DNA of 63,135 bases, the filler included, from Basidioascus undulatus (taxonomy: Eukaryota): assembly GCA_000826855.1 (NCBI GenBank). It is 4 parts of 4 records of this genome, joined end to end, with 100 filler letters (N's around TTAATTAATTAA, not from the genome) between each part and the next. Parts side by side here need not be neighbours in the genome. Positions count along the whole stretch, not along the records: positions 52,394 to 63,135 come from JTLS01001092.1; 3 more parts are not named here. One strand, written 5' to 3'. The first letter of the stretch is position 1. Every line of letters starts with the position of its first letter. The notes beneath the pieces were generated by a model, which was given only the letters and a program-made list of their open reading frames with translations, did not search any database and was not told the DNA's origin. This document shows positions 6,242-54,610 of this stretch, one piece after another. Made by a program: the position numbers and the translations under genes.

Positions 6242-8093
6242 ATGCTCCGCACCATGCTCCCGCACCTACTTATCCCCCTAGCAGCTGCGCTCCTTCCCAG
6301 CAGCGCGCTCGCGCAGTTCCAAAATACTGCGCTGACGCGGACGGTCGAGCTCGGGAGCGCGACCGTGCATGCTACGACGGCGTACCAGTTCACGGCTACC
6401 GAGGACGGCGTGCGGGAGTATGTGGTGGACTTCACGCCGGAGGAGCGCAGGGCGCTGAGCTGGTTTGAGGTCCGCGAGAAGGGCGCGAAGGAGGAGCTTG
6501 GGTGGAGATGGCTTGAGAAGGGCAGCGAGAGGTGAGTCTGCTTCCAGGAGGGACCATATTGTGCGCCATGCTCCAGAAGAGGAGAGGATCTGGCAAGTTC
6601 TGGTAGGACAACTTGGGGATTCCCCGTGGGAGGGCCTCCGAGCTGTTGCTGTTAGGAGCGGAGCAGGTCGAGCCCGAGCTACGCAGCCTCGATTGCTGAC
6701 CTCCTTCCCCCCTCCATTCCCAGCGAACCCCTCTCCCTATCAGTCCAACTCCCCTCCGCACTGTCCCCCTCCTCCCCTCTCACCACCCTCATCTTCACCG
6801 CCCTCCAAACCAACACAACCACCCCCCTCCCCTCGCACGCCGCGCAAGACGACCCGCTCCACCTCCTCTACACCACCTCCTCACACATCCCCTCGCGCTA
6901 CCCAACCGCCGCGCAGCGCACCAAGATCCGCGCGCCGACGCCCAAGCTCCTCAGCTTTTCGACCACCGCCGACGCGGAGAAGACGACCAAGTCGGGCGCC
7001 GTCGTCACGTACGGCCCGTGGAAGGACGTGCCTGCGGGCTTTGGGAGCGGCGAGGAAGTGCGGGTGCACTTTGAGGGTGACCGCGCAGTCGCAGTTGTCA
7101 AGAAGGCGGAGCGCCTCGCGGAGGTCAGCCATTGGGGCGCGGCGCTGAGTGTTGAGGACTGGATCGCGCTGCACAATGAAGGGCCTGCGTGCGTCTTCTT
7201 CATCCTCAACTTCCCTCATCGCCTTCCTCCTGATCCTTCCCGATCCCACCACAGTCTCAAGGGCCACTTCAACCGCCTCCAGCACCAGCAGTCGTCCTTC
7301 TTGCGCAAGACCTCCGCGTCGATCCTCTCGGGCCTCACGCTCCGCCTGCCCGGGACAGTCCGCAATCCGTACTACGCTGACGCGATCGGGAATGTTTCGA
7401 CGTCGCACTTCCGCCCCGAGGGCGTTCTCGAGCTTAAGCCGCGCTTCCCCATCCTCGGCGGGTGGAAGTACGAGTTCGTCGTCGGCTGGGACGCGGACCT
7501 CGGCCGGTTCGGGAGCGATCTGGGCAACGGCGAGTTTGTCGTCGGCGTACCGTTCTTAAACCCCCTTCCCGACGTCGCGGTGGATGAGGCGGTTCTGAAG
7601 GTCGTGCTGCCCGAGGGAGCGCAGTGCGTGCTTTTATCCTTTCCCTCTCTTCCGTTGTGAAAGGCAGACGCGCTTACCTTACGCTGGGTGCGCTACTCGG
7701 ACACACAGCAACATCGAGGTCCACCCGCCCTTCCCCGTCGACTCCATCACGCACGAAACAACCTACACCTTCCTCGACACGACCGGCCGTCCGACCGTAG
7801 TCCTGACCAAGCGGCGCGCATCCGAGAAGCACGGCGGGACCGTTTACGTGCGTCTTCTTCCCTTTTCCCCGCACTTTCGCCCCATCACCCCCGACTTCTT
7901 CCTTTTCTGACTCATTGCTTACCCCTGGCAACAACCACAGATCAAGTATGCCCTCCCCTGGTACCACCTCCTCCAGAAGCCGGCGGCTGTCGCGGGCGCG
8001 GCCCTCGCGTTCCTACTGCTCGCTGCGGCGCTAAAGCGCGTGCGGTGGACGACCGAGGGTGAGAGTGGGGTTGGGAAAAAGAAGGCGGAGTGA
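6242..8093 (+). CDS. OST1: Oligosaccharyltransferase subunit ribophorin I, multi-exon
   Basis: Signal peptide followed by FQNTALTRTVELG, VTYGPW, ERLAEVSHWG, LKGHFNRLQHQ, PYYADAIGNVSTSHFR, LELKPRFPILGGWKYEFVVGW, KVVLPEGA and TYTFLDTTGRP. It ends in a TM segment and a KKxx-type tail GKKKAE*. Confidence 0.95.
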
Positions 8094-13887: not shown

Positions 13888-13965
13888 GCTTGGCTGGGGT
13901 AGTGGTAACCTGGGTCGTTGCCATTGGAACTCGACCCGCCCCGCGTTCGATTCGCGGGTCAAGCA
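13888..13965 (+). tRNA. tRNA-Gly(GCC) with a 7-nt intron at 37/38 (13924-13930)
   Basis: Acceptor stem GCTTGGC/GTCAAGC plus A, D-loop AGTGGTA, anticodon stem GGTCG/CGACC with loop TT-GCC-A[TTGGAAC]T, T-arm CCGCG-TTCGATT-CGCGG. A TTTT run follows at 13967-13970. Mature length is 71 nt. Confidence 0.93.
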
Positions 13966-30576: not shown

Positions 30577-30676
30577 NNNNNNNNNNNNNNNNNNNNNNNN
30601 NNNNNNNNNNNNNNNNNNNNTTAATTAATTAANNNNNNNNNNNNNNNNNNNNNNNNNNNNNNNNNNNNNNNNNNNN
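30577..30676. other. Assembly gap linker (N44-TTAATTAATTAA-N44)
   Basis: An identical 100-nt construct occurs three times, and the 12-mer gives stops in all six frames. Confidence 0.97.
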
Positions 30677-40820: not shown

Positions 40821-41445
40821 GACCAGTGAAACGTGGGTCACGGTCCGAGATGATGATCTTCAGTTGGCCATGGTGCTTGAAGATGTGGTCAACATAGAGC
40901 TTGGCAATCCCTTGTCCAGTGACTCAGGTGGTTGTTGGGATGAAGTGTGCACGCTTGCTGAGGCGATCGACAATGACGAGGATGGCATCATGGTGCTTGT
41001 GTGTCTTGGTAGTCCAGTGACGAGGTCGAGTGACACCTGCTCCCACTTGCGTCGTGGTGTCGGCAAGGGCTGGAGGGCACCTTGAGGCTGTTGAGTCGAT
41101 GCCTTGTTGCACTGGCAGGTGTCACAGGTGGCGACATAGTCCTTGATGTGTTTGTGCATGTTGGGCCAGTAGTAGAGGCGGTGGATTCGTTCATATGTCT
41201 TGTCATATCCTGGGTGTCCAGCAGCCGGGGTGTCATGGTGATCATGGAGGACATTGTTGTGGATGGGGCCTTGAGGAACACAGAGACGTTCTCCTTCTGC
41301 AACGCCTGGGATGGCAGCATAGAGGAGGAATCTGTCACGCAATGTAAAGTGCTTGAGACGCTGTTGGAGCTCGAGGGGTGGTGGTGTGTTTTGGTCAGCT
41401 TCTTGTTGCTGGAGTGCATCCAGGATGGCCTGGAAATCTTTGTCA
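40806..41445 (-). mobile_element. Ty3/Gypsy LTR retrotransposon integrase relic
   Basis: HHCC zinc finger HDTPAAGHPGYDKT..YYWPNM..CDTCQ, then WEQVSLDLVTGLP, DAILVIVDRLSKRAHFIP and IISDRDPRFTGHFW. It has one frameshift and one internal TGA, and runs into the gap. Confidence 0.93.
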
Positions 41446-41545
41446 NNNNNNNNNNNNNNNNNNNNNNNNNNNNNNNNNNNNNNNNNNNNTTAATTAATTA
41501 ANNNNNNNNNNNNNNNNNNNNNNNNNNNNNNNNNNNNNNNNNNNN
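41446..41545. other. Assembly gap linker (N44-TTAATTAATTAA-N44)
   Basis: Same 100-nt construct as 30577-30676. Confidence 0.97.
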
Positions 41546-52293: not shown

Positions 52294-52393
52294 NNNNNNN
52301 NNNNNNNNNNNNNNNNNNNNNNNNNNNNNNNNNNNNNTTAATTAATTAANNNNNNNNNNNNNNNNNNNNNNNNNNNNNNNNNNNNNNNNNNNN
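52294..52393. other. Assembly gap linker (N44-TTAATTAATTAA-N44)
   Basis: Same 100-nt construct as 30577-30676. Confidence 0.97.
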
Positions 52394-52532
52394 TGCGGCG
52401 GATGGGATCGCCCGCACTGGCACGGGCGAGCCGGTGTCGGTCGTCAAGAAGGTGAAGAAGAAGAAGGGCAAGGCGAAGAAGAAGGAGAAGGAGAAACCAG
52501 ATGGGCAGGCTGGCGAGGGGGTGGCGAGCTAG
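52394..52532 (+). CDS. 3' end of an unidentified gene (Lys-rich tail), truncated by the gap
   Basis: Open frame AADGIARTGTGEPVSVVKKVKKKKGKAKKKEKEKPDGQAGEGVAS* followed by 3'UTR-like sequence. Confidence 0.45.
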
Positions 52533-53039
52533 CGGCCCACCGTCCTTTCTCCTTTCTGGCTTTCACGCCTACTTCACATTAGCTACACTACACACCTACC
52601 ATTGCGCCCGCCATCGCTACCTGTATTTGGCCCACGGCTATGCGCATTATTAGTACGCTTGCATTGCACTACATTTACACGCCTGGTCCTGTTCCGGGGT
52701 GCATGCTCGTTCGCGTCTGCCCGGAGTGAAATCCGAAGAAGTATTCTGTTGGCAAGTAAAGCGGGGGAACATCGACGGATGAATCCGTCGGGCTACTGGC
52801 CATCATGATGGACCTGCAGCGGGCGGGCTGGTTCAAAATATCCCCAGAAGTGGGGAGCAACAGAGTATTGAACCCGCTCATCTTTCTGCTGTTGGCAGGC
52901 TCGTGAGTCAGCATATATACCGCAATGTCATTCAGGATGCACTGTCATCCAGGATCTTCGCTGGGCTGTCATCATGAAATTATTATGGATTCACTTTCAG
53001 TAAAAGAGCAGCCACTTGTTAAATAAGTGGTCAGTCGAG

Positions 53040-53112
53040 ATCAGGGGGTTGCAGGTTCGATCCCTGCGTCGGTCACGGCCGGCTGGCTCAATGGTAGAAT
53101 ATCTGACTACGA
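53040..53112 (+). tRNA. Circularly permuted tRNA-Arg(ACG): 3' half 53040-53075, 1-nt spacer, 5' half 53077-53112
   Basis: 3' half is A-TCAGG-GGGTT-GCAGG-TTCGATC-CCTGC-GTCGGTC-A. 5' half is GGCCGGC-TG-GCTC-AATGGTA-GAAT-A-TCTGA-CT-ACG-A. Reassembled they give a 72-nt cloverleaf with full acceptor, anticodon and T stems and one D-stem mismatch. Function is untested. Confidence 0.8.
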
Positions 53113-53672
53113 TTCTTTTGCACCTCGAGATCTTAAGGCTACAAGTTTTGCTACCCGTCCTTTACTCAATCAGAAGGGGTTGGACCGTCGTCATCTTGTT
53201 AAGAAAATTCAACCACCGGTTCATATCGGCGGGTGCACCGTGTACGATCTCGTCGCACAGGCAGAAAGCTGCAATATCGGTTTTCTGTCAGAGAACGATG
53301 CTCGACATGTTGTTGATGATGAGTAGGCCCATTTGGAGGTCAGCCGATATTGAGGGAGCATACAAAGTCGAATGCTACTGTGACACAGCACGATGCGGCG
53401 TAGCCTCAGGAGCTGCTGGCGACCGGATGACGGTCTCTTTTGTTGTCGGCGTGTTATCGAATGTGTGGAGAATAGTAATGTCCTATCCTCCCATTTGGTT
53501 GGACGGCAGCATTTCTTATGTTGAACCCGCGGACGGAAGTTCCTACGCGACTGAATCCGCTTTCGCTCCCTGCCCTCCTCCTATCATCAACCACCCGCTG
53601 GACCTCAATATTGTGTGGGTCCCTCTGAGGCTTTATTCATTGAAAAGCTTCCTCCACGTCCTCCCAGTCCAC

Positions 53673-54069
53673 ATGCAGCTGTCCACCAGCTCGCCCACCG
53701 ACCCCTTCTCCTGCATCCCTTACGATTGTCTGCGCCTCGTCTTTAGCCACCTTTCCGCTCGTGATTTCGCCCTGCTTGCAGCCTGTCCCCACTCCACCCG
53801 CCTTCTTATCGCTCAACTCGCGATGCACCCGGCGCTCTTCTTCAGACGGGGTTTCGCCGCCGAGATTACAAAAACAAAGGGCTGTTTTGCGAAATAATAT
53901 GTGGAAAACAGCAGCTCGGGTCGACTTGTCGACGTTGCATAGTGCGAGAACCGTTCACGGGTTCGAAAATTCGGCGATGGACCGCAGAATCTTGGGCGGC
54001 AGCTTTGGAGATCGATCGATGGAAGTAGAGGAGGAACGATTAATTAGGAGAGACGAGGAGATTCCGTGA
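53673..54069 (+). pseudogene. F-box-like protein remnant
   Basis: PFSCIPYDCLRLVFSHLSARDFALL followed by an early stop or frameshift. Confidence 0.45.
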
Positions 54070-54610
54070 GAGGAGTGGTCAGTGAAGGACATGATGGTTC
54101 GAGGGAGAGTGAGAACGGCGCAGGCTGGCTGGCGATGGCGATCGAGCGCCGCCGCCGCCGCTCACAACCCTACATTTGCGGCAAAATGAATACCTTCTCA
54201 CCTTTTTTTTTCTTGTGTGCATATGTTAAACACTGTAAGTTTCATTGAACTGAATTCACGAGCCGCTCAGCGGCTGCGTGCTCAGCGTGGTGCACGATTG
54301 CGCCGACATCTGCGATTGCCACAGTCCCGACCCTCGAGGACCTCCCTGATTAGCATGTTGACCTCCTGAGGGCGGTTTAAGTGCTGACATGCGTGCGGCA
54401 TATATTTACCACTTACCCTTCGCTACTCACTGTAGAAGGCATATCGAGCACGTTGGCCGGTTCGGTCTGCCGACAGACACAGCCCCTCCAACCTTCGAGG
54501 AGCAACAGCATCTCTCGCGTGAACAACATATGGAAAGCGCTTAAATTCAATGTATAAGCCTCTCCGGCCCGCCATCCTCCTCATCCCCAGGCCCGACATA
54601 CACCCTCCTC

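Follow-up and report, generated by a model that had tools for sequence, protein, structure and literature searches.

A circularly permuted gene for transfer RNA (tRNA), tRNA-Arg(ACG), lies at 53040-53112 on the plus strand of a 63,135-nucleotide (nt) stretch of Basidioascus undulatus DNA (the window, along the whole of which all coordinates are counted), on the contig that starts at 52394. The permuted gene is real. Of more interest is that the unit it belongs to forms a family in this fungus, conserved and dispersed in many copies. Judged from the sequences at hand, the locus is probably a member of a dispersed, multi-copy family of permuted tRNA-Arg(ACG) genes with a type II 37/38 junction and an intervening sequence of a single nucleotide.

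Layout of the permuted tRNA-Arg(ACG) gene

The native order on the plus strand is leader, 3' half (53040-53075), a single C (53076), 5' half (53077-53112) and trailer. The 3' half holds nt 38-73 of the tRNA, that is the 3' strand of the anticodon stem, the variable region, the T arm with the B box, the 3' strand of the acceptor stem and A73, while the 5' half holds nt 1-37, that is the 5' strand of the acceptor stem, the D arm with the A box and the 5' strand of the anticodon stem, and ends in the loop nucleotides C32, U33, A34, C35, G36 and A37. The end of the leader reads GTCAGTCGAG, directly 5' of the 3' half; 53113-53129 is TTCTTTTGCACCTCGAG, and the sequence downstream continues as ATCTTAAGG. 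When the two halves were joined by script, 5' half first, ARAGORN returned a 72-nt tRNA-Arg(acg) cloverleaf with an acceptor stem of 7 base pairs (bp), two of them G.U, and T and anticodon stems of 5 bp each. The joined tRNA keeps U33, a purine at position 37 and all universal tRNA features. The permuted tRNA-Arg(ACG) with an A73-C-G1 junction, as described in an earlier annotation of this locus (the original prediction), was thus confirmed by ARAGORN and by the sequence itself.

The locus has the layout of a circularly permuted tRNA gene: the 3' half stands upstream of the 5' half on one strand, the joined halves give a complete cloverleaf, and a linking sequence, here the one C at 53076, connects the 3' and 5' ends of the acceptor stem. 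This C, whose junction is spanned by short high-depth contigs, could act as C74 of the CCA end. The AT-rich upstream region and the downstream T stretch that accompany permuted tRNA genes are also found at the unit, 53033-53121. Standard tRNA finders miss the permuted layout: in the native order of the window the gene escaped both ARAGORN and Rfam at gathering scores. A second copy of the unit was found in the window neither with blastn-short nor with a box scan.

A dispersed multi-copy unit

Contigs from two DNA runs, each from a different study (X1 and X2, with about 35 Mb of contigs per run), were placed on 52400-54400. The X1 and X2 contigs are identical to the window wherever they cover this region, X2 leaving approximately 52905-53036 uncovered. 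The flanks of the unit have single-copy depth, 38.8-48.2 in X1 and 15.5-18.1 in X2. Over the bins 53003-53069 and 53070-53136 the summed depth reaches 3795 and 5241 in X1 and 1569 and 1665 in X2, values that are sums over contigs and not copy numbers. Short contigs of 53-56 nt lie over 53046-53098. The one from X1, with one difference, has a depth of 472.7, about 10-12 times the single-copy value; of the two from X2, the one identical to the window stands at 298.3 (about 16-19 times) and the one with one difference at 175.4 (about 10-11 times). We take these contigs to be of the Logan type, built from 31-letter words, in which case every 31-mer of the 53-56-nt contigs spans the A73-C-G1 junction. 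An assembly artefact was considered and rejected, as the junction recurs in both runs, which come from separate studies.

Diverged copies lie on at least three long contigs of single-copy depth (18.5, 50.7 and 1.8 kb in X1; 4.2, 2.6 and 1.8 kb in X2), with 7 differences in 83 nt over 53037-53119, 5 in 54 over 53045-53098 and 4 in 47 over 53075-53121. The piece that starts at 53037, where its contig ends, shares the leader GAG (53037-53039), and a piece from a further run, X3, begins to match at 53033. On the other side, three contigs have loose ends directly behind 53119, with an onward consensus agreement of only 0.51, one piece ends at 53121, and the copies on other contigs diverge after TTCTTTT(GC). 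The shared unit therefore extends from about 53033/37 to 53119/21 and consists of the leader (AGTC)GAG, the 3' half, the C, the 5' half and TTCTTTT(GC). Within it the leader AGTCGAG occupies 53033-53039 on the plus strand, parts of it being common to paralogous contigs, and the trailer TTCTTTTGC, with a T4 run at 53116-53119, occupies 53113-53121 on the same strand and forms the 3' edge common to the copies. The view that the permuted form has been maintained or amplified is upheld, since the unit is multi-copy with conserved boundaries. Among the joints listed for the X1 and X2 contigs there was none that goes back, as would be expected of a 90-nt tandem array or of a non-permuted gene.

The contigs specific to this locus break off at 53048 and resume at 53069, and the high-depth junction contig ends at 53098. 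From these breakpoints we infer that this copy may differ from the majority copies at or before 53045 and at about 53099, the mismatched A24. A reading of TCGAG as a target-site duplication was rejected, because the leader GAG or AGTCGAG is common to the paralogs as a part of the unit.

The proposed 90-nt duplication

In the original prediction the gene was the inner part of a head-to-tail dimer with a period of 90 nt, whose two outer halves had decayed and were still visible. Its arithmetic is correct. The 8-mer TCGAGATC is found at 53035-53042, where it straddles the boundary between leader and 3' half, and again at 53125-53132, an offset of 90 that equals the sum of 72 (36+36), 17 (53113-53129) and 1 (the C at 53076). 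GG does stand at the start of the upstream segment, at 52987, and 53130-53147 does match 53040-53057 at 11 of 18 positions, with transitions making up five of the seven mismatches. The P values given below for both outer halves are nominal, that is uncorrected for the free choice of what was flagged.

The upstream segment, 52987-53022, taken by the prediction for a decayed 5' half, is no better than noise, which is the result by which that prediction had agreed to be judged. At offset 90 it matches the 5' half at 4 of 36 positions, offsets between 80 and 100 otherwise giving 5 to 15 matches; judged by 2000 dinucleotide shuffles, its gapped local alignment to the 5' half has P=0.90 (P=0.73 with 2000 random window pieces), and a boundary-anchored score has P=0.18. 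There is no 5'-half relic upstream of the gene. The 70 nt upstream of the unit (52963-53032, plus strand) have a guanine-cytosine (GC) content of 0.37, with TA-rich patches and a hairpin; no more than 0.8% of all 70-mers of the window have so low a value, and the tRNA-Gly gene of the window has a similar upstream flank (70 nt, GC content 0.39). From this composition and the lack of similarity to the 5' half we read 52963-53032 as a probable upstream region of the tRNA-gene type, not as a tRNA relic. The hairpin (53011-53031, 9 bp with a 3-nt loop) lies immediately 5' of 53033, where one paralogous contig begins to match.

Downstream, the claim of a full decayed 3' half is not supported, and what is left of it is at most a marginal echo of 23 nt (53125-53147, plus strand), made of the second copy of TCGAGATC and a 15-nt stretch with 8 matches to 53043-53057. 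An exact repeat of at least 8 nt straddling the boundary between leader and 3' half was found in 1.0% of 200,000 random 70-nt window flanks (P=0.010). After the 8-mer, 11 of 33 positions match (P=0.22), the first 15 of them giving 8 matches (P=0.025) and the best prefix P=0.062. Transitions account for 5 of 7 mismatches in the first 18 positions, but for 11 of 22 over all 36. A gapped local alignment of 53133-53215 to the rest of the 3' half has P=0.39 or 0.47, and its best segment is out of the period-90 register. The echo is somewhat more probably a coincidence of sequence than a true, if short, remnant of the event from which the unit arose, the latter keeping a sizeable minority chance. 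Against calling it chance stand the boundary-anchored log-odds score, with P=0.026 in 6000 random flanks, and the nominal P values of 0.01-0.03 in general, because of which that label is not safe.

The second TCGAGATC lies beyond the first T4 run of the unit and outside the part common to the paralogs. Since at least four other contigs stop matching at 53119-53121, this 8-mer and the rest of the 17-nt 'intron' are private to the locus; the other visible copies are without the downstream GCACCTCGAG-ATC continuation. Three overlapping 6-bp palindromes, CTCGAG, AGATCT and CTTAAG, occur on the plus strand at 53124-53137 and include the second TCGAGATC; we found no meaning in them, and by our own arithmetic about 0.24 such triples are expected in a window of this size.

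Possible leader pairing, probable terminator and proposed maturation

The T4 run at 53116-53119 is a probable terminator for RNA polymerase III (Pol III), since a T4 run (GTTTTG) also directly follows the tRNA-Gly gene, the one tRNA gene of ordinary appearance in the window. ARAGORN calls that gene as a 78-nt tRNA-Gly(gcc) at 13888-13965 on the plus strand with a poor anticodon stem; reread with a 7-nt intron at 37/38, tRNA-Gly(GCC) has the anticodon stem GGTCG/CGACC. Rfam missed it even at E values up to 10.

The leader can pair with the anticodon loop in more than one way. Its G at position -3 can pair with C32, as in an anticodon-intron pair, leaving a 3-nt bulge with the 3' cut site, and GUCGAG can pair with C32-U33 and with C35-G36-A37-U(+1). 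In a nearest-neighbour model the extended helix between leader and anticodon loop comes to -5.4 kcal/mol relative to the cloverleaf alone, whereas the canonical intron drawing (C32:G(-3), a 3-nt bulge and a central helix with three of four pairs) comes to +6.4 kcal/mol. The minimum free energy fold of the unit is ordinary (z=0.22). A role in splicing would be a candidate function of the leader pairing.

The edges of the unit coincide with what would be the functional points of a canonical 37/38 intron, and a maturation pathway can be proposed on this basis. Transcription would start in the AT-rich flank shortly upstream of 53033 and stop at the T4 run at 53116-19. As the 3' end of a canonical 37/38 intron does, the short leader GUCGAG would pair with the anticodon loop, and the tRNA splicing endonuclease would cleave 3' of A37 and 5' of A38. 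A tRNA ligase would then seal both ends into a 73-nt circle, RNase P would open the circle 5' of G1 to leave an end in A73-C, and the CCA-adding enzyme would finish the 3' end by adding CA onto A73-C. The published pathway for permuted pre-tRNAs likewise has both junction ends cut, ligation to a circle and opening of the acceptor loop (PMC3978253).

Origin and status of the family

The two models of origin put forward in the original prediction are not new, since both are given in the review of Soma 2014 (PMC3978253, section 10 and Figure 5A-C): a tandem duplication whose outer segments are lost, and the reverse transcription of a permuted or circular pre-tRNA. That an intron-containing tRNA-Arg(ACG) once stood here head to tail with a period of 90, its outer halves decaying in place and still recognisable, agrees with the 8-mer placed at offset 90 exactly on the exon boundary, with the 11 of 18 downstream matches and their preponderance of transitions (5 of 7), and with a duplication model already in print (PMC3978253). 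It is largely refuted upstream, where the half that should survive matches at 4 of 36 positions (P=0.73-0.90 gapped, 0.18 anchored), and downstream the similarity ends after 23 nt, with 11 of 33 matches beyond the 8-mer (P=0.22) and gapped P values of 0.39-0.47; moreover, the flank is absent from the other copies, which obliges the model to make this locus the founder of many tens of copies. We regard a dimer with both outer halves still visible as very improbable. The echo, if real, is a better fit to an event that duplicated only about 1.26 periods than to a whole dimer, as such an event would explain both the missing upstream relic and the abrupt end at about 53147. In this case reverse transcription would have gone about 1.26 turns round an intron-containing pre-tRNA, circularised and end-processed (72+17+C), or would have copied a dimeric transcript; only 53035-53147 would ever have been duplicated, the second pass at 53125-53147 decaying and the first remaining under selection. 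Such an over-length copy would also account for the flank-free A73-C-G1 junction with its C as the first base of CCA, the dispersed units, bounded like a Pol III transcript, suggest an RNA-mediated spread, and the model has a place in the literature (PMC3978253, Figure 5B,C legend). However, its signal amounts to the same uncorrected P=0.01-0.03, the C at the junction has a chance expectation of one in four, neither a target-site duplication nor a tail is evident in the sequence of the locus, and the lack of the continuation in the other visible copies requires this locus to be the founder or a duplicate that carries its flank. We therefore hold an over-length copy to be rather unlikely, with more in its favour than the decayed dimer. 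A role for the repeat itself was also considered, the palindromic CTCGAG/GATC letting the trailer copy pair with the leader copy to form an outer bulge-helix-bulge helix in a longer transcript. The fold of 52995-53150 does pair the leader at 53033-42 with the trailer at about 53127-38, but at the cost of the anticodon stem, and its stability is ordinary (z=-1.46, 15 of 200 shuffles being at least as stable), and the trailer copy lies past the first T4 run and is not common to the paralogs, which leaves a functional repeat hardly credible.

Independently of the echo, the units could be a burst of retro-pseudogenes or a very short element resembling a short interspersed element (SINE), derived from a permuted or nicked tRNA-Arg. 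Several junction variants each reach about 10-19 times single-copy depth, a high copy number for one tRNA species, and the D-stem mismatch of this copy, the reversed order of the boxes and the transcript-like bounds of the unit agree with such an origin. What speaks for genes is that the unit, only about 83-89 nt long, has neither body nor tail, that its conserved edges are functional points (the G at -3 of the anticodon-intron pair, and the T run), that its upstream flank is AT-rich as is that of the bona fide tRNA gene of the window, and that all universal tRNA features are kept. A tRNA-derived SINE was tried as an identity and rejected: the unit is multi-copy, though it has about 83-89 nt and reversed boxes, and no body, tail or flanking duplication is seen at the locus. 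On balance we lean towards family members being working tRNA genes, and consider a burst of dead copies less likely.

Several points nevertheless weigh against a family of working permuted genes. The D stem of the copy at 53040-53112 has one C11.A24 mismatch besides one G.U pair, and with the difference that may exist at about 53099 (nt 24) this locus may be a slightly damaged member. The reversed order of the A and B boxes is a poor fit to the TFIIIC-dependent transcription that is usual in fungi (PMC3978253). A loop of A73 and C, 2 nt in all, cannot close the full 7-bp acceptor stem, which the energy model forbids. For one tRNA gene, several tens of copies are many, and a burst of SINE-like elements or of pseudogenes could also account for them. 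Finally, the account of the copies covers part of the placed pieces and loose ends (a further 95 pieces and 39 loose ends exist), and the paralogs are known by their placement.

In its most complete form the reading would have a permuted gene family supply the main arginine tRNA of this fungus (ACG, read as ICG) by way of a 73-nt circular RNA. These would be the first permuted genes in fungi and in opisthokonts, and would be matured by the ordinary endonuclease and ligase of the yeast type; a single RNase P cut would open the one-nucleotide acceptor loop, the spacer C becoming C74, and the locus would still hold roughly one quarter of a second pass round the 90-nt circular pre-tRNA from whose complementary DNA the family arose. 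We regard this joint reading as improbable.

Other features of the window

The window consists of separate contigs joined by three linkers of the form N44-TTAATTAATTAA-N44 (30577-30676, 41446-41545 and 52294-52393), and neighbourhood across the linkers is therefore meaningless. An open reading frame (ORF) at 6656-7660 encodes Ribophorin I, with its best relatives, at 36-42% identity, in Agaricomycetes and Tremellomycetes, and other ORFs of the window carry TIM21 and a retrotransposon integrase domain. The latter, an integrase zinc-binding domain (PF17921, E=1.9e-22), is in the minus-strand ORF at 40860-41489, which so appears to be a Ty3/gypsy-type retrotransposon fragment on a neighbouring contig. 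The protein relatives place the fungus within or close to Basidiomycota, with the species itself missing from the protein collection. A long open frame at 53004-53897 on the plus strand runs through the tRNA and looks coding only near its end (53667-53897); its residues 235-269 match an F-box weakly (E=0.00073, which does not reach the Pfam cut-off). The tRNA unit probably lies between genes, with the F-box-like gene about 550 nt downstream of it. Two short purine-rich stretches, 52448-52495 and 53958-54002, which an X1 contig connects (52495 to 53958), attract many other contigs of the same runs and resemble a dispersed repeat of low complexity.

Significance

Permuted tRNA genes have been regarded as a curiosity, found in a few algae and one archaeon and linked to TATA-driven tRNA transcription and to splicing enzymes that are permissive. 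If a fungus does have a multi-copy permuted tRNA, the standard tRNA machinery of opisthokonts would tolerate or even exploit the permuted layout, and the fungus would offer a culturable system in which to ask how an acceptor loop of one nucleotide is opened. Had the fossil duplication been borne out, the origin of such genes would for the first time have been traceable directly in a sequence; the duplication is now a weak hint at best.

Comparison with known permuted tRNAs and tRNA mimics

The only Rfam match at the locus was to YrlA (RF02553) at 53043-53107, with 24.2 bits against a gathering score of 69, and YrlA was rejected as its identity. This weak match is explained by the order of T arm, closed acceptor stem and D arm, which YrlA shares; the fungal unit differs from YrlA in having both strands of the anticodon stem and, once joined, a complete ACG loop. 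The exact 41-nt junction string had no match in metagenome, prokaryote genome or viral contigs. A degenerate pattern from T arm to D arm was found at 120 or more loci in metagenome contigs, and in 24 of those listed a short loop closes an acceptor stem of 6-7 complementary pairs. The listed loci have no likeness to the fungal unit beyond the T-arm and D-arm motifs that the search pattern had fixed, and the 24 appear to be tRNA mimics of bacteria or phages rather than relatives of the unit. A YrlA-like arrangement of T arm, perfect 7-bp acceptor stem, loop of 1-5 nt and D arm is found in metagenome loci L006, L008, L013, L017, L022 and L032, and further in L041, L046, L054, L055, L065, L069, L070, L095, L116, L119 and others; L032, L046, L054, L055 and L069 are near-identical among themselves. 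A 40-amino-acid translation across the unit, searched against 1.84 billion protein representatives, gave two matches, both to unrelated repeat proteins.

The hosts of permuted tRNA genes named in the consulted sections of a review are Cyanidioschyzon merolae, four prasinophytes, the nucleomorph of Bigelowiella natans and Thermofilum pendens (PMC3978253), and permuted tRNAs have also been described in Auxenochlorella (PMC12636532). Table 1 of the review has no permuted Arg(ACG) and gives eukaryotic intervening sequences of 5-74 bp (PMC3978253). Full-text literature searches for permuted tRNA together with fungi or Basidiomycota turned up no fungal case in the portions of text that they returned. 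The algal and nucleomorph genes of type II with a 37/38 junction (PMC3978253; Soma 2007 and Maruyama 2010, as covered by reviews) have the same leader and trailer resembling intron ends, the same T stretch 3' of the 5' half, an AT-rich upstream region and an incompletely encoded CCA. The unit described here differs from them in its fungal host, its identity as Arg(ACG), its spacer of 1 nt as against 5-74 bp and its many copies.

In Ostreococcus lucimarinus the gene for tRNA-Cys(GCA) has an extra 5' half downstream, which was presented as a possible intermediate of the duplication model (PMC3978253, section 10). There as here a partial extra piece of tRNA lies beside a permuted gene and has been read as a relic of tandem duplication; the alga, however, has a whole extra half, whereas the fungal locus has at most 23 nt of a 3' half, and those marginal. 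The tRNA-Tyr(GTA) of Thermofilum pendens (Chan, Cozen and Lowe 2011, as cited in PMC3978253) differs in being archaeal, in its 59/60 junction, in encoding CCA, in having an intron and in being single-copy, but it has the same intervening sequence of 1 nt and poses the same question of how so short a loop is opened.

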